Shown: positions 32,837-45,319, counted from the stretch's first letter. The stretch is DNA of 64,000 nt from Chloroflexota bacterium (GCA_965261345.1 OZ253449.1:1664001-1728000), one strand, 5' to 3'. The notes: generated by a model from the sequence alone, not told the origin. Program-made: numbers and translations.

Positions 32837-33553
32837 TTAGCCCGAGCGTTTGGCGTGTTGGTGGTCGGGGTGAATCGCCCGGGCCTGGGCAAGATCGCCC
32901 TGGCTGGTGATTTTCAGATTAGTCTCTGCGCCTTCGTATACCGCAACCGGGTGGCCGCAATGTCGCAGCAGCGAGGCCTCGTCGGTGAAGCGGTCAAGTT
33001 CGCCCCGCAGACGGCGATGGCACTGGAGCAGCAGCTGGCGTTTGGCGATCTGCGGCGTTTGCGCCAGGTAGCTGCGCGCCCGATCCGGTGATTGGACTAT
33101 CCGGCCGCCGCCATCTACGATCTGGACCGTGTCGGTGGCCCGGAGGGCGGCGATTACGGCTCCATGCCGGGACGCCGCCGCCAGGCCGTCGTCGATTAGT
33201 CGTGGGGTTAGAAATGGCCGGGCCGCGTCGTGGACGAGCGCCCACTCCCAATCGCCCGCGGCCGCCTCGAGGCCGGACAACGTCGAGATTGAGCGGCAGT
33301 CCCCGCCCTTGCAGGGAGGCAGCAGCTTGTCGCTGCCCGACCGATCAGCGATTTGGCCCAGCCAGGCAAGATTGTCCGGCGAGCCGACTATCTGGATCGC
33401 GCTAACTGCCGGGCTGGCGATCAATGCCGCCAGCGCCAGGTCGGCCACCGCGCGGCCGGCAATTTCCTCGCGCAGCTTGTCGGCCCCGAAACGCCGGGAA
33501 GCGCCGCCGGCCAACAGGACCGCCAGGCAACTTTCGGCCGATCGATTGCCCAT
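32837..33553 (-). CDS. ispD: MEP cytidylyltransferase
   Basis: LLAGGASRRFG..K, HDAARP, QTPQ, TDEASL, NLKIT; start at ATG 33553. Confidence 0.92.
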   Translation of the reverse strand: MGNRSAESCLAVLLAGGASRRFGADKLREEIAGRAVADLALAALIASPAVSAIQIVGSPDNLAWLGQIADRSGSDKLLPPCKGGDCRSISTLSGLEAAAGDWEWALVHDAARPFLTPRLIDDGLAAASRHGAVIAALRATDTVQIVDGGGRIVQSPDRARSYLAQTPQIAKRQLLLQCHRRLRGELDRFTDEASLLRHCGHPVAVYEGAETNLKITSQGDLAQARAIHPDHQHAKRSG

Positions 33554-33593
33554 CGTCAATCGGCCAGCCCGGCCGGATCGCCGCGATCGCCGG

Positions 33594-36059
33594 CTAGGCC
33601 TCGATCGGTTGCAGGACGTTGGTGGCCAATTCGTCGCCGGCGCGATCAACGACGACTTTGGCGCCGCTAACCAATTCGCCGGCCAACAGGGTTTCGGCCA
33701 ACGGGTCCTCGAGCAATTGTTGGATGATGCGCCGCAGCGGACGCGCCCCAAAATCCGGATCGTAGCCGCGTTCGGCCAATAGCCCCAGGGCCGCGACAGA
33801 GAGATCGAGCTCGACTTCGAGCTCGCGCAATCGGGCACGAAGGTGTTCGAGCTCAAGATCGACGATGCGATCGATATCAGCTCGTCCGAGCGAGCGGAAC
33901 ACGACCGAGGCATCGATCCGGTTTAGAAATTCGGGCCTGAAGGCCTTGCGCAACTCACTGGTTACCTTGGACTTCATTTCGCGATAGAAATCTTCTTCGG
34001 CCGCCGCCTCGACCGCTCCGGAAAAACCCAGTCCGCCGGCGCGCTTGATCTGCTTGGCCCCGATGTTGGAGGTCATGATCAAAACCGTGTTGCGGAAGTC
34101 GACGGTGCGGCCCTTGGAATCGGTCAGGCGACCGTCTTCCATCAACTGCAGCAGGACGTTGAAAACGTCGGGGTGGGCCTTTTCGATCTCATCGAGCAGG
34201 ATCACCGAATAGGGTCGCCGCCGGGCGGCCTCGGTCAATTGACCGGCATCTTCATAACCGATGTAGCCGGGTGGGGCCCCGACCAAGCGCGATACGGAAT
34301 GCCGCTCCATGTATTCGGACATGTCGATCCGAATTAGGGCTTCCTGGCTGCCGAACAGGAATTCGGCCAGGGCCCGCGCCAGCAGGGTCTTGCCCACGCC
34401 GGTCGGTCCCATGAATATGAAACTGCCGATCGGGCGCTTCGGGTCCTTGAGGCCCGCCCGTGCCCGTCGAACCGCCTTGGACAGGGTGGCGATAGCCTCA
34501 TCCTGGGAAATTACCGTGCGGTGCAATTCGTCTTCCATATGCAGCAGCCGCTTGGACTCCTCCTCGGCGATCCGGTGGACCGGGATTCCGGTCCAAACCG
34601 AGACGACCTGGGCCACGTCCTCTTCGAGCACCTGGGGGATCTCGCGGGCCCGGGTATCGAGCCATTGGGCTTCCATCGCCTCGGCCTTGGCCCGCATTGT
34701 CCGCTCCTGCTCGCGCAGTTCGTCGGCTTCGTCGAACTCCGATCGGGAGATTGCCGCGTCCTTGCGGCGGACCAGCTCTTCGACTTGTTTTTGCATATTG
34801 CGAAGGGCCAGCGAGGTCGATCCCGCGCGGATGTTGACCCGCGCCGCGGCCTCATCGATCACGTCGATCGCCTTGTCCGGCAGGAAGCGGTCGGTCACAT
34901 AGCGGCCGGCCATCTCCGAGGCCGAAACGACCGCCTCGTCGGTGATCTTGACGCTGTGGTGTTCCTCGTAGCGCGATCGCACGCCGAGCAGGATTGCGGT
35001 CGTCTCTTCAATCGTCGACTCGCGCACTCGGACCTGCTGAAAGCGCCGCTCCAGGGCCGCGTCGCGTTCAACGTATTTGCGAAATTCGTCGGCGGTGGTG
35101 GCCCCGATGCACTGTAGTTCGCCCCGGGAAAGCGCCGGTTTGAGAATATTGGCGGCATCGATCGCCCCCTCGGCGGCACCGGCCCCGACCAGGGTGTGCA
35201 ACTCGTCGATGAATATCACGCAGTCGTTGGAACTGCGGATCTCCTCGATAACCTTCTTGAGCCGCTCCTCGAACTCGCCGCGGTATTTGGTGCCGGCCAC
35301 CAGCAACCCGATGTCGAGGGTAAGCAGGCGGCGGTCCTTGAGGCTCTCTGGTATGTCGCCGGCCACGATCTTCTGGGCCAGGCCCTCCACGATCGCGGTC
35401 TTGCCTACTCCGGGGTCGCCGACCAGCGCCGGGTTGTTCTTGGTACGTCGCGAAAGGATGTGAATCACCCGGTCAATCTCGTTTTCGCGGCCGATGACCG
35501 GATCGAGCTCGTCGCGCCGGGCGGCGGCAGTCAGGTCGATCCCCAGTGAATCGAGGGTAGGTGTCGCCGAGGTCTTGCGGCGGGCGGCGCGTCCGCGGCG
35601 CTTGGGCTCCATCGCCCCCTGCGAGACCACTCGCACGACCTGGGCACGAACTTTTTCCAGGTTCACGCCCAAACTCTCCAGTACTCCGGCGGCAATACCC
35701 TCGCCCTCGCGCACCAATCCCAATAGCAGGTGCTCGGTACCGATGTAGTTGTGGCCCAGGCGTCTGGCTTCCTCGACCGCCAGCTCGATTACGCGTTTGG
35801 CGCGTGGAGTCAGGTTGATGTCGGCAATGACCACTTTTTCGCCACGGCCGATGATAAATTCAACCGCCGAGCGCACCTTATTTAGTTCGACTCCCAGGTT
35901 CCCCAGCGCCTTGGCGGCGATGCCGTCGCCCTCGCGCAAAAGCCCCAGCAACAGATGCTCGGTGCCGATGTAGGTGTGGTTGAAGCGGGTGGCCTCGTCT
36001 TGGGCGTAGACGAGCACCTTTTTGGCGCGTTCGGTGAACTTGTCTAATCGCTCGTTCAC
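33594..36059 (-). CDS. clpC: ATP-dependent Clp protease ATPase ClpC
   Basis: Two Clp-N repeats ([10 protein letters not shown]), [16 protein letters not shown]-type M-domain, [17 protein letters not shown] loop. Confidence 0.96.
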
Positions 36060-37558: not shown

Positions 37559-39490
37559 CTAGAGGTGCCGAATGCGTTCTTCGACCGCGGTCCTTATGAT
37601 GTTGGGCAACGCCGCAACATCTTCGATCACCGCCCCGGCGCAGGATGCCAGCGGCTTGTCGTTGTAGGTGGGCTGGTAGGCCAACTGGAATTCCGACTTG
37701 ACCACTCCGACACCGAAGGCCAGGACCTTGTAGCGCTGGTCGGGCCGGCCGGCCCGGTTGTTGCGGTGCATGTCGATGAGGGCGCGCCGGAGGAGTGCCG
37801 GGTCGGAGCTGATTCCGTCGGTTACCACGAAGATGCTCTTTAGGCCCGGTTGCGAGCGCGAGCGCTCCAGGGCGGCCGCTAGGGCGCCGGAATCGTCGGT
37901 GTCCTTGTGATCTAGGTCGTAGAGGCGTTTGAATATTTCCGAGTGATCGCGGGGTTCGTAGGGTGCTGCCCGCCCCGAGAGCTGCCGCGGCCATTTGCAG
38001 TCCGCAAAGGCCCAAAGCGGTGTTATCTGCGAGGAGAAGGCGATCACCTCGAACGGGATCCGCAGGCGTTCATGGATTTCGATGAAAAGGATCGCCGAAT
38101 CGGCTAGGCGGTCGAATTTGCGGGTGGGGTAACCCTTCTGCACCATCGAACCCGAGATGTCGAGCAGGATCAAGCTGGCAAAGTCGCGCTGGCGGTCATT
38201 GCGCGGTACTCGCAGGCCCTTGAGGAATGCGTTCAACGGGTCGGTCAACAGGCGCTCGGGCCGCTGCAGGTCGATATTGCCGGTCTCGCCCGACCGGCGC
38301 TTGCGAGGACGACGTTGGGCGTCGGTGTCGCCCTGCCGACGACGGTCCATGATCTGTTCCAACCCCGGCCGGCGACCGTCGCCTTTGATGGTGGTCTCGA
38401 TCCCTGGGCGCAGGCGCTCGACCGCCGCCAGGTAGTCGAAATTCTCGTAATCGACGCGGTCGTTTTCCTCGCCGCGGCGCAGCGCATCAACCATATCGCT
38501 GGCCCAGCGCGGGTTGCTTCTGGCGTTGCGGTCGAGCATCCGGCGCCGGACCGAGCGGGCCGAGATCGCCCGGCGCTGCTGGACCCGCTGCTGGGCGCGT
38601 TTGACCGCCTGCGACCCGCCGGCGCCCTCGCGCAACTGAATGGTCTCTTCGCCGATCTCACCCTCGCCGACCTCGGCGTTGGCCCGGGCGGCCTGGGCGT
38701 CGGCCTCGTTGGCGGCCGCGTTGGGTTGACCGGCGTCCTCGCCGGCCGGCCGGTCGGTCTGTTGCGAGAGCGCCTCCCATTCCCCGATCAGGCCGGCATA
38801 CACTGCCGCGGTGCGTCCGGAGAGGCGTTTTAGCAAACCCTCCAGGTCGTCGGCGCCGGCCGCCCGCTCGAGATCACGGCGGGTCTGGTCCAGCGCATCC
38901 TGGACCAGTTGCGGAGTAAACGGGGTCTGGGTGTTGCCGGGCCAACGCCGGTTGGCCCAGTTCGCCGTCAATGCGTCGAGGAAGAGGTGGTGGGCTGGAC
39001 GCAGGAACCCGCTGCTGTCGGTGGGGGCGGCGACATCGGAACGCGGATCCAGGTCGGGCAGCAGGCGGTATAGCTCGACAAAGTAGGGTTCGGCTCCCGG
39101 ACGGTTTTGGAGGTAGCGGTCGTTGACGCGCAAATCGTTGACCGCGCTAACTAGCAGGCGCATCGAGTCGGCCGAATAGCCGTGGCGACGCTGGCCCCGC
39201 AGCCATTGTTCGATCCTCCGCCGCCCGGCCGCGCCGGTGTGGAATGCCTCGGCCACAAGGTGGCACATCCCGCCGATCAATCGCCGATCCGGCCAGATCC
39301 GGGTCAGCTGTTCGGGGTAGGTGATCAGCTGATGATCGGGGAGATAGCCCCACCATTGCCCGGGCAGGACGGCAATTCGCCGATCGCCGATGATTAGCCG
39401 GGTTGCCAGTTCCAGTTCACCCGGATCGAGGCCGGCCGACTTGGCCGGCTGCGATCCGGTTACGGCCGCGAGATGTTCAGGCGATACCAT
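37559..39490 (-). CDS. CobT/NorD/CbbO-like VWA (MIDAS) domain protein, 643 aa
   Basis: C-terminal LILLDISGSM..FEVIAFS..T..FVVTDG..LAFGVG; N-terminal VNDLRVN (cf. the EDxRxx motif of CobT-like proteins) and an acidic linker; ATG overlaps the AAA gene by 14 nt. Confidence 0.8.
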   Translation of the reverse strand: MVSPEHLAAVTGSQPAKSAGLDPGELELATRLIIGDRRIAVLPGQWWGYLPDHQLITYPEQLTRIWPDRRLIGGMCHLVAEAFHTGAAGRRRIEQWLRGQRRHGYSADSMRLLVSAVNDLRVNDRYLQNRPGAEPYFVELYRLLPDLDPRSDVAAPTDSSGFLRPAHHLFLDALTANWANRRWPGNTQTPFTPQLVQDALDQTRRDLERAAGADDLEGLLKRLSGRTAAVYAGLIGEWEALSQQTDRPAGEDAGQPNAAANEADAQAARANAEVGEGEIGEETIQLREGAGGSQAVKRAQQRVQQRRAISARSVRRRMLDRNARSNPRWASDMVDALRRGEENDRVDYENFDYLAAVERLRPGIETTIKGDGRRPGLEQIMDRRRQGDTDAQRRPRKRRSGETGNIDLQRPERLLTDPLNAFLKGLRVPRNDRQRDFASLILLDISGSMVQKGYPTRKFDRLADSAILFIEIHERLRIPFEVIAFSSQITPLWAFADCKWPRQLSGRAAPYEPRDHSEIFKRLYDLDHKDTDDSGALAAALERSRSQPGLKSIFVVTDGISSDPALLRRALIDMHRNNRAGRPDQRYKVLAFGVGVVKSEFQLAYQPTYNDKPLASCAGAVIEDVAALPNIIRTAVEERIRHL

Positions 39491-41801
39491 AGTTGGCCAG
39501 CACCGGCTCGAGCACCCGCAGCATCTCCGGCGAGGCGCCCTCGAGGACCCCGCGCCGGTACCAGCCGCAGAGTTGTTCGCGGTCATCGGACCCCTGGGCC
39601 AGCATGACCAGCTCGGCGGTCGTTAGCGCGGTGCGCTCGGCCACCGCCGAGGCCAGGTCGGGCGGGATATTTCCAAAACCCTCGCCTCCGGCTTCGTCCA
39701 GCTCGCCGGCCAGCAGGCGGCGCGCGACGCCAACCAACTGGCAGATTCCGGTCAGCAAGTCCCGGTCGGCGGTCGGCCCGGATACTTCGCCAAGGATCGC
39801 CAGCTCCTCGTCGGGTGGAGGGTACTCCATGGCGATGACCGCCCCGAAGCGGTTTTCGACCCCCTCGTTGAGCGGTTTTACGCCCGGCCCGTCGGGGGCC
39901 GCGGTGGCGACCAGGCGAAAGTGCGGATGGGCGCGAAACTGCGACCCATCGGGCAGCGTGACCAGCCCGGCCTTGTCAAACAGCCCATTAATGATCGAGT
40001 GCACGTCGGGATAGGCCAGGTTGTATTCATTGATGATTACGAAATATCCGGCCTGTACCGCCTCCATGAACGCCTGAACGTTCCAGCGGGTTTGGCCGCC
40101 GCGCATCTGCCGAACCGCGGTCAGGTCGCTCTTGTCGGTCTCGCCGGTAAACGAAAACTCGACCACCGGCAGCTCCCACTGCAACGCCAGGGTCCGCGCA
40201 AGTGCCGATTTGCCGCAGCCCGATGGACCGCGCAGCATGACCGGCCAGCCCAGCAGCACCGCGCTCTGGGCGAGCTGCACGGCGCGATGGGTGGACGCGG
40301 TCAGGCAGGGCAGCGTACTCAAGGAGGTTGGCAGGCTGCCCAAGGCCTGCGGTAGATTGATGTCGAACTGGGCCCGGAGCTGGCTGCGAACCAGATCCAG
40401 CTGGGTGCGCTGGGTAAGTCGCCGGCCGTTGTGATCGAAGGCCGTCAGCGCCGGGGCCCTGCCCGGGCTGGCCGATATGAGCGCCCTGGTCCCGTCGGAG
40501 AGCAGGAGCTCTTCGCCACCTGACGGATCGGCGGCAACCGATTCAGCGGGCAATGGATAGTCCAGCGCGGGCACTGGCCGCGCGGTACCGGGCGGCGGCG
40601 GATCGTCGACTAACAGGGTCCCCGCCAGCCTGGCCGGCGGTTGCTCGGCGGCCTTGAGATTGCCCAGCAGTTTGCTGGCGATCGTTACCACTTCCCCGGC
40701 AATGTCGGGCGGGGCGATCGTTAGCACCGCTAGGCCGCCGATCTGCGCCAGCGGCAAACCGGTCAGATGCCCGATCGCCAGCCAATGCAGCAGCGCCCGG
40801 GTGGAGATTCGATCGCGCATCCGCCCACCGTGTTCACGGTGATGGCGCAGTCGATCGGCCACCGCCACCAATCGCTCGGCGGCAATCCGATTGGCGCTGA
40901 CGCCGGCCGCGCCCAGCAACCCGATCCGGTCAAATTCAACCAGCAGCGAGTCGATTTCCTGGTCCGGCGGCAGAAAACCCATCGTCATATCGCCCAGTCC
41001 GACCCCGAAGCGTCGCCGCAGCGGGCGACCCAGTTCGGAAGTGCCGATGTAATTGGGGTTGGCGGTGGCGATGATCCCAAAATCCTGGTGCAGGGCGATT
41101 TCGACGTTGCCCATGCGGGTGGAAGAGAGCAGTAGGCGACCGGTGTCCATTGCCGAGGTGATCGCACTCATCAGGTCGGCCGGGAGCATGTTCAGTTCGT
41201 TGATCAGCAGCTTCTTGCCGTAAAGCATGGCCTCGGCGGCCGGTCCCAGCTGAGCCTGGGTTGACTGCCGCCCCTGCGCATCGATCCTCACCTCGGTGCG
41301 GTGGAAGAAATCGGTCAGGGTCGAATCGCCGGAAAAATTCAATTCGGTAATCGGGAGGTTGGCGGCAAAACAATAGGTCTTGGCCAGGGTCGTTTTGCCG
41401 CAGCCGGTAGGCCCGGAGATGAGGATCATTGAACCCAGCCGCGGATTGTTGTCAATTTGCGCGATCCGCTCCAGCATGTCTGCCATGCCGGCGGTCAGGT
41501 GGGCGAAGATTTCATGTCGGCGCGGCACGCTTTGCGCGAAATCGTCGGCTTCGGCCGGCCGGAAATGGTTGGCGTCGATATTCATGTTGGCGCGGGCGAT
41601 TTGGCTGGCGCGCGGGTAGCGACGGCCCTTAATTTCGTAGCAGTCGTGGGTAACAATCAGCTCCGGTCCCAGTTTGATGGTTTCGCCGGCGGGGATTTGG
41701 GCGGAGTCGTCCGCGGGGGCTGAACCCGGATGGGTACCGGCCGGGGCGGATGGTTCGGGTATGAGCCGGCGGATCAGGTCTAACAAGTTCGCATTTGCCA
41801 C
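39477..41801 (-). CDS. Tandem double AAA+ ATPase (MoxR/CbbQ/dynein-midasin type)
   Basis: D1: GPTGCGKT, LLINELN, HQDFGIIATANP, LRRRF. D2: GPSGCGKS, VIINEYN, AHPHFRLVATAAP, VENRF. Confidence 0.85.
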   Translation of the reverse strand: MANANLLDLIRRLIPEPSAPAGTHPGSAPADDSAQIPAGETIKLGPELIVTHDCYEIKGRRYPRASQIARANMNIDANHFRPAEADDFAQSVPRRHEIFAHLTAGMADMLERIAQIDNNPRLGSMILISGPTGCGKTTLAKTYCFAANLPITELNFSGDSTLTDFFHRTEVRIDAQGRQSTQAQLGPAAEAMLYGKKLLINELNMLPADLMSAITSAMDTGRLLLSSTRMGNVEIALHQDFGIIATANPNYIGTSELGRPLRRRFGVGLGDMTMGFLPPDQEIDSLLVEFDRIGLLGAAGVSANRIAAERLVAVADRLRHHREHGGRMRDRISTRALLHWLAIGHLTGLPLAQIGGLAVLTIAPPDIAGEVVTIASKLLGNLKAAEQPPARLAGTLLVDDPPPPGTARPVPALDYPLPAESVAADPSGGEELLLSDGTRALISASPGRAPALTAFDHNGRRLTQRTQLDLVRSQLRAQFDINLPQALGSLPTSLSTLPCLTASTHRAVQLAQSAVLLGWPVMLRGPSGCGKSALARTLALQWELPVVEFSFTGETDKSDLTAVRQMRGGQTRWNVQAFMEAVQAGYFVIINEYNLAYPDVHSIINGLFDKAGLVTLPDGSQFRAHPHFRLVATAAPDGPGVKPLNEGVENRFGAVIAMEYPPPDEELAILGEVSGPTADRDLLTGICQLVGVARRLLAGELDEAGGEGFGNIPPDLASAVAERTALTTAELVMLAQGSDDREQLCGWYRRGVLEGASPEMLRVLEPVLANYGIA

Positions 41802-41966
41802 TTGGCCGATGTGTCAATGCCTAGGTTATTTGAATCGGTCTCCCATGCATCCGCAATTGGGAGTCCATATCGCCCTGAGTTTGAATAGCGTTATATACCT
41901 TGGTTTACATTGTGTCTAAGTAACGTAATATATTTGTAAAGCTTATTCATTCGAATTCGTTAATAC

Positions 41967-41982
41967 TTTGAACTATTTCAAA
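41967..41982. promoter_or_regulatory. Candidate operator, inverted repeat TTTGAA-N4-TTCAAA
   Basis: Perfect 6-bp inverted repeat 20 nt upstream of the lexA ATG, inside an AT-rich divergent spacer. Confidence 0.5.
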
Positions 41983-42002
41983 CACGGATTGAGCAGGTAG
42001 AT

Positions 42003-43816: not shown

Positions 43817-45319
43817 TTAAGCGGTATTCGAGCCGGTGGCCGGGTCGGCCGATCCGTGCTCGGGGGTTGGAAAACGCAGCGCCTCGAAGGCATGCGCCAG
43901 CCCCTGGCGCACCCGCTCAAGGGCGGTTCCCTCAAGGACAAATACCGGCAGATCCAGATCGATCGCTCGGTCCAGGGCGGCGTCACGGTGGAAGTAGCTA
44001 GAGCGCGTGGCAATCAACAGCTCGGCCCGGTCCAGGTCACGCACCGGAGTCACGTCGATCCCCAGAGCGCGCGCGGCTTTGCGGATTTTGCCGGCCGAAA
44101 TCCCGTGCAGGTAGGGGCGCAAAGGGTCCGGATCCAGGGTGGCCTGCGCGATTGCGCGATCGGGCGGCTGGGCCAGGCGGGCCTGGTCAGAGCGGGATGG
44201 GCGCAGGGTGCGGCGATCAATTTGGACCTGGCCGCCGGCGAGGGTGCGCAATTCGGCGGCCACCGGTTCGCCGGCCAGGATGGCGTCGGCGGCGATCGCC
44301 AAATGGGTGTGCACCAGCAGTTGATTGCGCTGGGCGATTTCAATTAGGACATCAAAAGTGGGGGCCGCACGGCGCTCCAGCACCGCTTTCCGCGATCTCC
44401 GGCGCCGGGCCTCGCGATCGCCCAGGATCACATTTTCAATCCCGCCGACGAGCCCGTTCAGGGTCGGGTTGGTAATCAGGTTGTGCAGGCTGTTCCCATG
44501 CGCGGTGGCGATCAGTTGGATCCCTCGCTCGGCGATCGTACGGGCTGCCCGGGCCTCCTCGATCGTGCCGATCTCGTCGATGATGAGGACCTCCGGGGTG
44601 TGGTTCTCGACCGCTTCGATCATCACCTGGTGCTGCAACTCGGGCGAGGCGACCTGCATCCGGCGAGCCCGACCAATCCCCGGATGCGGGATGTCGCCGT
44701 CGCCGGCGATTTCGTTGGATGTATCCACCACCAGGACCCGGCGCCCCAAACCGGACGAGAGTTCGCGTGCGATCTCGCGCAACAAGGTTGTTTTGCCGAC
44801 CCCGGGGCGGCCGACCAAAAGCACCGAACTGCGTGCATCGATTACGTCGCGCACCAGGGCGACCTGCCCGTATATTGCCCGCCCGCGGCGCAGGGTCAGG
44901 CCCACGACCTCTCCGGCGCGGTTGCGGATCGCCGAAATCCGATGCAGGGTGCCCAGCAGCCCGGCGCGATTGTCGGCGTCGAATTGCCCGATTCGACGCA
45001 CTGCCGATTGCAGGGTTGCCGCGTCTACCTGCCAGCTGCCCAATTCGATGTCGCCCCAGGGAAAGCGGGCCAGCGGGCGGCGGCCGATATCGAGAACGAT
45101 CTCAACTAGGGCGTCGGCCTCGCGTTGGGCCCGCACCGGTTTGGCAATGGCTTCCGGGAGCACCGCCAGCAACGCTTCAAATTCGGCGCGGTCGGTCTCA
45201 GCGTAGTGCAAACTCGCGCCGCTTGGCGTGCCCAATTCATCAGCGCGGCCTGCGCGCTCGGCCTGGGGAGCTGGTTCGGTGCCGATCGAAATTAGCGACC
45301 CTGGGTGGTTAGCGTTCAA
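43817..45319 (-). CDS. Ycf45/SpoIIIAA-like AAA ATPase
   Basis: DNRAGL.GTLHRISAIRNR, GRPGVGKTT, VDTSNEIAGDGDIPH, EAVENHTPE, IDEIG, TAHG. Confidence 0.85.
   Translation of the reverse strand: MNANHPGSLISIGTEPAPQAERAGRADELGTPSGASLHYAETDRAEFEALLAVLPEAIAKPVRAQREADALVEIVLDIGRRPLARFPWGDIELGSWQVDAATLQSAVRRIGQFDADNRAGLLGTLHRISAIRNRAGEVVGLTLRRGRAIYGQVALVRDVIDARSSVLLVGRPGVGKTTLLREIARELSSGLGRRVLVVDTSNEIAGDGDIPHPGIGRARRMQVASPELQHQVMIEAVENHTPEVLIIDEIGTIEEARAARTIAERGIQLIATAHGNSLHNLITNPTLNGLVGGIENVILGDREARRRRSRKAVLERRAAPTFDVLIEIAQRNQLLVHTHLAIAADAILAGEPVAAELRTLAGGQVQIDRRTLRPSRSDQARLAQPPDRAIAQATLDPDPLRPYLHGISAGKIRKAARALGIDVTPVRDLDRAELLIATRSSYFHRDAALDRAIDLDLPVFVLEGTALERVRQGLAHAFEALRFPTPEHGSADPATGSNTA

Follow-up and report, generated by a model that had tools for sequence, protein, structure and literature searches.

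We describe a gene pair in a 64,000-nucleotide stretch of the genome of a Chloroflexota bacterium (GCA_965261345.1 OZ253449.1:1664001-1728000), which is referred to here, at its full length, as the window. The first gene encodes an ATPase of 774 amino acids in which two AAA_5 modules, D1 and D2, follow each other in a single chain; the second, directly downstream, encodes a partner of 643 amino acids with a VWA domain and a MIDAS (metal-ion-dependent adhesion site). The pair is real and is conserved in Chloroflexota. In a survey of 20 kb around each of 20 matching loci the partner was directly downstream of the ATPase in 20/20, the distance between the ATPase stop and its start being -13 to +58 nt, and this adjacency in related loci excludes chance as the source of the pairing. 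Two modules per chain were present in all 21 loci, the window included. The pair is probably a remodelling or cofactor-insertion chaperone of the MoxR type represented by NorQ-NorD and CbbQ-CbbO, with an internally duplicated motor that would form a trimeric pseudo-hexamer of alternating active and degenerate sites.

Anatomy of the tandem motor and its partner

The features of the pair, in window coordinates, are as follows.

39477..41801 (-), tandem AAA_5 ATPase gene: open reading frame (ORF) of 774 amino acids, GTG start, Pfam AAA_5 in two stretches
41391..41414 (-), D1 Walker A GPTGCGKT (residues 130-137), from motif and alignment
41196..41201 (-), D1 Walker B, Asn-Glu (N201 E202) and not Asp-Glu, aligned with the midasin Asp-Glu
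40662..41492 (-), module D1 (residues ~104-380), AAA core and lid: full motif set except for the Asn-Glu Walker B
40365..40514 (-), small beta/helix domain between the modules (residues 430-479), from AlphaFold2 (AF2) secondary structure
40206..40229 (-), D2 Walker A GPSGCGKS (residues 525-532), from motif and alignment
39480..40304 (-), module D2 (residues ~500-774): intact Walker A, Walker B N591-E592, Arg R651; no sensor-1 Asn or sensor-2 Arg
39480..39740 (-), lid of D2 together with the C-terminal helices (residues 688-774), predicted dock for the partner N-domain, from complex prediction
37559..39490 (-), VWA/MIDAS partner gene: 643 amino acids from the ATG at 39490
38756..39433 (-), partner N-terminal helical domain (residues 20-245), AF2 predicted local distance difference test (pLDDT) >90
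38462..38752 (-), acidic, variable, disordered linker (residues 247-343): pLDDT <50, variable alignment columns
38195..38341 (-), basic segment conserved in the alignment (residues 384-432, RR.G..D..RRPRK...), by analogy a candidate for a pore-inserting finger
37562..38182 (-), VWA domain with complete MIDAS (residues 437-643): DxSxS at 38147-38161, T531, D558

Much of what an earlier note, made from the sequence alone, had said of this locus was borne out. It had described a 774-residue protein with two complete AAA modules and a MIDAS on a separate protein; Pfam places AAA_5 (PF07728) twice on the ATPase, in two stretches, with 120.2 bits against a gathering cut-off of 22 (E 8.6e-35), and the MIDAS is on its own protein. 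The Walker A motifs lie exactly where it had put them, at 41391-41414 and 40206-40229, the tails which it attributed to each module are both seen (HQDFGIIATANP..RRRF and HPHFRLVATAAP..ENRF), and the start of the 643-residue partner overlaps the ATPase stop, by 14 nt. A TTG at 41786 is an alternative ATPase start and matches the alignment position of the methionine of the congeners; the longest partner frame by mechanical ORF call is 37559-39586 (-), of 675 amino acids. The AF2 model of the ATPase (pLDDT 81.2, predicted template modelling score 0.82) consists of a small beta unit (residues 42-63), D1 (~104-380), a beta/helix unit (430-479) and D2 (~500-774).

The two modules differ in their catalytic residues in a consistent manner. 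In the D1 modules of 41/41 aligned homologs the Walker A K136, N201-E202, the sensor-1 N248, R263/R264 and the sensor-2 R335 are invariant, and the Walker A of both modules is conserved in all 41. D1 retains the sensor-1 Asn, the Arg finger and the sensor-2 Arg, whereas in 10/10 Chloroflexota members the sensor-1 position of D2 is Ala, Phe, Tyr, Gln or Arg and its sensor-2 is Ala, with R651 kept; the asymmetry is seen both in the 10/10 family members tabulated and in the 41-sequence alignment. Since D2 is without sensor-1 and sensor-2, every second site would be degenerate in any ring made from the ATPase chain. At the C-terminus of D2, L764 and L768 are invariant in the same alignment and E765 and Y771 nearly so.

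A further peculiarity is common to both modules. The catalytic columns were compared in an alignment of 57 modules from tandem, single-module, midasin and archaeal proteins, in every row of which the Walker A lysine is present. The Walker B of both modules in 12/12 tandem proteins is Asn-Glu, or Asn-Asp in three D2 modules, rather than the Asp-Glu of 7/8 single-module references and of most midasin and archaeal modules. MoxR proper and the CbbQ-like proteins have Asp-Glu. The single-module exception, an AAA_5 protein with an Asn-Glu Walker B from an Altiarchaeota metagenome-assembled genome (MAG; L056:1176-2456), is encoded next to a gene for an ArsA-type ATPase; because it shares the Asn-Glu variant, this variant may be older than the tandem family. 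CbbQ_C (PF08406) is matched weakly in the D1 lid, where a six-frame search of the genome gave 20.7 bits (cut-off 20.6), and is outside the best 25 Pfam families for the ATPase.

The acidic linker and the MIDAS which the earlier note had seen in the partner were also found. In the AF2 model of the partner (pLDDT 75) the linker is disordered, a short helical piece lies between it and the basic segment, and the basic segment is itself predicted to be disordered in the single chain, although R384, R385, G387, R393, R394, P395 and R396 are invariant. The MIDAS residues D444-I-S-G-S448, T531 and T557-D558-G559 are invariant in 44/44 homologs. The top fold match of the partner is the Rea1/MDN1 MIDAS (E 5e-7), followed by the NorD VWA domain (E 2.7e-6), in a search which used the whole partner and is dominated by the VWA domain. 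The claim that the N-terminus is CobT-like was not confirmed: the N-domain matched no Pfam family, PF06213 (the CobT N-domain) had no match among 44 partners, and the leads that exist are weak, namely a best PDB profile match to CobT which is non-significant (E 0.044) and lies in the linker region, CobT annotations in 15% of the members of the partner's Atlas cluster, and weak CobT_C matches (E>=0.012) in 12/44 partners.

Complex prediction supports a docking of the partner N-domain on the D2 lid. With ATPase residues 95-774 and partner residues 1-250 as input the score was 0.82, compared with 0.00 for the best of three controls; this mark is attained by 58/80 solved complexes and by 2/110 mismatched pairs. 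At least 84% of contacts are common to the three runs, and the partner pLDDT is at least 83. The predicted interface places partner residues 20-36, 41-43, 68-76 and 130-136 against residues 663, 688-724 and 759-774 of the D2 lid, and takes in the conserved C-terminal LExxLxxY helix of D2. The predicted contact mirrors that described in the NorQD cryo-EM paper, in which the NorD N-domain binds the small helical subdomain of NorQ.

Origin of the tandem, distribution and gene context

The earlier note had called the module a mini-midasin, a description that now stands as an analogy only. In a whole-chain search of the PDB midasin does rank first (E ~5e-42), with a score that sums over its six modules; taken per module, D2 scores 66 bits with CbbQ, 65.5 bits with NorQ and 50.7 bits with the best midasin module, and D1 scores 41.7 bits with CbbQ. 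Midasin was therefore rejected as the closest relative, its rank being the sum of up to nine stretches. D1 and D2 are homologous to each other (BLASTP 80.5 bits, 31% identity over 162 residues; hhalign probability 99.8%). An exhaustive search of 1.84 billion representatives gave 345 proteins at E<=1e-30. The Chloroflexota family heads them, ahead of midasins, archaeal proteins with six modules and two tandem proteins from metagenomes, P0095 and P0134, each with a first module of D1 type and a second of D2 type. P0095 itself has one close relative and thereafter only the Chloroflexota family.

A maximum-likelihood tree was made without three rows on long branches, on 54 rows in 288 columns; a quick tree of all 57 rows agrees with it. 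The D1 clade (98/96) and the D2 clade (97/92) are recovered as sisters (94/88), and together they form a clade of their own, apart from the Chloroflexota CbbQ-like proteins. The placement of this clade relative to midasin and CbbQ-like modules has a support of no more than 67/45. As D1 and D2 are sister paralogs, the duplication was internal to the lineage, and it predates the split from P0095 and P0134; the tandem is no fragment of a midasin. A correspondence of D1 to the even and of D2 to the odd midasin modules was also considered, and was rejected because the trees put D1 and D2 as sisters and the midasin modules together; it had been suggested by profile hidden Markov model (HMM) scoring, in which the D1 profile is better by +2 to +20 bits for the even midasin modules 2 and 4 and the D2 profile by 8 to 59 bits for the odd ones.

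Two archaeal proteins in this comparison, P0099 (Methanosalsum zhilinae WP_013897510.1, 3261 aa) and P0096 (a Thermoproteota MAG, 4005 aa), have six AAA_5 modules each. Their odd and even modules fall into separate clades (100/100 and 100/99), from which it follows that each six-module ring is an (A-B)x3 arrangement, a triplicated two-module unit. The modules of P0096 group with those of eukaryotic midasin in the tree. Another large protein, P0093 (from a metagenome, 2600 aa), has four near-identical AAA_5 modules with WD40 beta-propellers after each.

The ATPase is present in 38/301 Chloroflexota genomes (30/245 of the high-quality ones), as judged by a full-length match at E<=1e-30 and with one unpublished genome, G227, included in this tally but entering no other claim. 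By family, it is found in 5/5 genomes of the window's own, 12/18 of a second and 9/9 of a third, and within one family it is present in 11/12 genomes of genus g5 and 0/5 of genus g4. Every match among these genomes is one open frame with both modules. Identity to the window's ATPase is 72-75% within the genus, 54% within the family, ~52% within the order and ~45% in other classes. The ATPase has 82 database homologs, and those with names are all Chloroflexota or generic, one name reading 'Nitric-oxide reductase protein'. It is single-copy in the source genome (1 contig, 2.39 Mb, 95% complete). A contig scan with alignment, which was saturated by the generic P-loop pattern, confirmed four loci: two from Chloroflexota and two unrelated single AAA_5 genes.

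The neighbours of the pair in the window are those which the earlier note had stated. LexA lies upstream and is divergent, and beyond it come a c-di-AMP receptor, Tmk, a SpoIIIAA-like ATPase, PdxT and PdxS; downstream are S1, ClpC, IspD and CysS. The c-di-AMP receptor (PF06153; 42661-43023, -) lies beside tmk, and the SpoIIIAA-like AAA protein (43817-45319, -) has 500 amino acids and a C-terminal PTPase-type domain. The start of the mechanical IspD ORF (32837-33913, -) lies 320 nt inside clpC, and residue 131 is the first of its IspD domain; the true start is probably internal.

Two candidates for a conserved third gene were rejected. The ~300-residue genes directly downstream of the pair in two lineages encode unrelated hydrophobic proteins without a family, and an Oxidored_molyb gene is immediately upstream in 3/20 loci only. 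In these three loci (L049, L050 and L051, from two other Chloroflexota families) a gene for a molybdopterin oxidoreductase (PF00174) of 199-217 amino acids precedes the ATPase on the same strand, with a gap of 27 nt in L051; its product is possibly a lineage-specific client, or possibly a mere neighbour. The source genome has three molybdoenzyme genes, none at the pair.

The proposed ring and its alternatives

In the probable reading given at the outset, three D1-D2 chains would assemble as one pseudo-hexameric ring of a single layer, made of D1 and D2 in alternation; such a trimer is plausible. The D1 sites, with catalytic Glu, sensor-1, Arg finger and sensor-2 retained, would hydrolyse ATP; the D2 sites would bind nucleotide in a chiefly structural or regulatory role, and the D2 lid would be where the adaptor's N-terminal domain docks. 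The adaptor's VWA domain and basic segment would sit on the ring or in its pore face, in the manner of the NorD finger, and the MIDAS metal would grip an acidic residue of the client. ATP-driven motion of the ring could then stretch the long acidic linker between the adaptor's two anchor points and so remodel the client, which would be encoded elsewhere. A side-by-side arrangement of the modules is compatible with the whole-chain model, which aligns to consecutive ring modules of dynein and Rea1 over 760-840 columns (TMq 0.41-0.48).

Several points weigh against this reading. The Asn in the Walker B of both modules could mean that hydrolysis is very slow or does not occur, even in D1. The Foldseek superpositions on dynein and Rea1 are loose, with a root-mean-square deviation of 12.5-17 A. 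The complex prediction may have passed through resemblance to the solved NorQD structures, and so may not be independent of them. The pore-inserting finger is a candidate role assigned to partner residues 384-432 by their likeness to the NorD finger, an analogy. VWA_2 scores 25.4 bits in the window's partner, under the Pfam gathering score of 27, and is matched by 44/44 family members at E<=0.1; the fold model bears out a VWA domain. As NCBIfam scores are all far under their cut-offs (GvpN 70.6 bits against 266.8; CobS, TIGR01650, 34.7 against 558.55), no equivalog assignment can be made. Finally, beyond the partner the pair keeps no neighbour from family to family in the 20 loci of 20 kb, and these loci offer no candidate client; that no client gene would be found near the pair had been noticed for the window, and it holds across lineages.

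A bolder form of the ring model is put forward tentatively. The D1-D2 tandem could be a living representative of the two-module stage which lies behind single-chain six-module AAA_5 rings. It would act as a trimer whose three D1 modules hydrolyse ATP and whose three D2 modules are degenerate and dock the adaptor, and the invariant Asn-Glu Walker B of both would make it a slow, switch-like motor for one housekeeping client of Chloroflexota. As a part of this proposal, and with as much reserve, the same A-B-A-B-A-B plan would have been fixed covalently in the archaeal (A-B)x3 giants and be echoed by the active and degenerate modules of midasin.

Alternatively, the two modules could be stacked as in the type II AAA proteins ClpB and p97, with six chains forming a double-ring hexamer. 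Many tandem AAA proteins are double rings, and the ~100-residue segment between D1 and D2, with a small domain of its own, permits either stacked or side-by-side geometry. However, all known concatenated modules of AAA_5 type, those of dynein and midasin, are placed next to each other within a single ring, it is to such consecutive modules that the full-length model aligns best, and the archaeal (A-B)x3 proteins are the covalent equivalent of a tandem trimer. Stacking is considered unlikely.

It is also conceivable that the pair is the ortholog of a characterised one, CobS-CobT, CbbQ-CbbO, NorQ-NorD or that of GvpN, with its client encoded elsewhere. The similarity to all of these is weak; CobT as the top (non-significant) PDB profile match, the weak CobT_C matches, the database name mentioning nitric-oxide reductase, and the presence in the source genome of one gene for a COX1-family heme-copper oxidase subunit I could each be taken in its favour. 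The oxidase gene, however, is ~716 kb from the pair, and heme-copper oxidases occur in 9/14 control genomes. CobN is lacking and the RuBisCO large subunit (PF00016) has 0 matches across the single-contig 2.39-Mb genome (95% complete), and no nor cluster (norCB) is beside the pair in the window or in the 20 loci, in agreement with the earlier observation that no cobN, rubisco or nor gene is nearby. Together with the NCBIfam scores and the separation of the D1/D2 clade from the Chloroflexota CbbQ-like proteins, this makes orthology very unlikely.

The surroundings of the pair had suggested to the earlier note a remodeller of ribosomes or proteostasis under stress, tied to rpsA, clpC and, through the SOS response, lexA. 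A divergent lexA and a same-strand rpsA-clpC do flank the pair in the window and in its congeners, the stretch from the partner gene to rpsA yielded no terminator-like site, lexA is at 0.2-5.4 kb in 6/10 loci of the same order, and the MIDAS of midasin acts on pre-ribosomes. The linkage is not conserved, however. S1-ClpC follows the pair in 4/20 loci, all from the window's own family; lexA is inside the 20-kb locus in 6/20, all from the same order (0/10 outside it), and even there its position and orientation differ by genus, since it is either 0.2 kb upstream and divergent or 2.7-5.4 kb downstream in the same orientation. In other lineages the neighbours are a GT4 glycosyltransferase, MutL, the small molybdopterin oxidoreductase, a sugar-binding protein, a BNR-repeat protein, a 2-hydroxyacid dehydrogenase, NrdJ or unrelated membrane proteins. 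Such a pattern fits residual synteny of housekeeping genes, and a dedicated role of this kind is highly improbable.

The region between the pair and lexA was also considered.

41802..42002 (no strand), AT-rich 201-bp divergent intergenic region common with lexA, from the sequence; context, not shown to be part of the module

The motif GAAC-N4-GTTC, which we take to be the LexA box, is absent from 41802-42002, and has 3 matches elsewhere in the window compared with 0.81 expected. A perfect palindrome, TTTGAA-CTAT-TTCAAA (TTTGAA-N4-TTCAAA), occurs at 41968-41983, 20 nt before the lexA ATG, and from its sequence may be an unusual LexA operator. The block ATATTTGTAAAGCT..CATTCGAAT of the region is also present in one congener.

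That the pair is an anti-phage system, in the sense that MoxR-vWA cores are reused in biological conflict systems (Kaur et al. 2020), is scarcely credible, as it has no conserved neighbour that could serve as third component or effector, PADLOC gives P-loop-level matches only for the ATPase and none for the partner, the gene is single-copy with an identity that drops with taxonomic distance as in vertical descent, and the gene context is housekeeping.

Significance and comparison with known systems

Rubisco, NO reductase and cobaltochelatase are among the key enzymes that MoxR-VWA machines supply with metals or reactivate, by a mechanism that is only now being solved. What is new here is the Asn-Glu Walker B of both modules, the suggested division of labour between D1 and D2, the predicted docking of the partner on the D2 lid and the internal duplication. 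With a covalent A-B motor, a full catalytic set at every second site only and the lid of the degenerate module as the predicted dock, the tandem would be a natural asymmetric ring in which it can be asked how many active sites such motors need, and it would also suit the study of how the two anchor points of an adaptor are used. It further provides a prokaryotic model for the step from single-module to concatenated rings, as found in the archaeal six-module proteins, midasin and dynein. Which client it serves is a testable question in these Chloroflexota, a group that is widespread, uncultured and apparently marine.

As the earlier note had supposed, the architecture may be undescribed: full-text searches of the literature outside subscription journals turned up no account of a tandem MoxR/AAA_5 ATPase in bacteria that is paired with a VWA protein. 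In the published accounts consulted, MoxR has a single module and the ring of six modules is seen as having arisen in eukaryotes. By its published description, VWA8 of animal mitochondria has two dynein-like AAA+ domains and a VWA domain; on this basis it differs in that AAA and VWA are fused in one chain of ~1,900 amino acids, where here there are two proteins.

CobS-CobT resembles the pair in its motor of AAA_5 type, in the acidic linker and the VWA domain of its adaptor, and in the weak sequence leads to CobT and CobT_C, but it differs in the low TIGR01650 score, the missing CobN and the missing PF06213 match. The likeness to midasin/Rea1 lies in the concatenated AAA_5 modules, some active and some degenerate, and in the MIDAS behind an acidic linker. 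The ATPase is nevertheless not a member of the midasins, since it has two modules and its MIDAS is on a separate protein, whereas midasin joins six modules, linker and MIDAS in one chain of ~4,900 amino acids. Furthermore, modules 2-5 of midasin have an Asp-Glu Walker B, and its modules were duplicated independently of D1 and D2. The archaeal six-module giants have the same type of module, and their (A-B) unit is the arrangement that would result from a trimer of D1-D2 chains; they differ in being one chain, in belonging to clades other than D1 and D2 and in the Asp-Glu Walker B of most of their modules.

The best single-module solved relatives of D1 and D2 are found in NorQ-NorD and CbbQ-CbbO, the motors of which are of the same AAA_5 type with a helix-2 insert. 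They differ in having one module per chain in place of the divergent D1 and D2, and the Asn-Glu Walker B of both modules and the loss of sensor-1 and sensor-2 from D2 set the present ATPase apart. In NorQ-NorD, as in the present pair, the two genes are coupled, the VWA MIDAS of NorD (DxSxS-T-D) recurs in the C-terminus of the partner, and the proportions of NorD, with an N-domain to ~241 and a linker at 242-393 before the VWA domain, are those of the partner, with its N-domain at 20-245, an unresolved linker and a VWA domain at 437-643.

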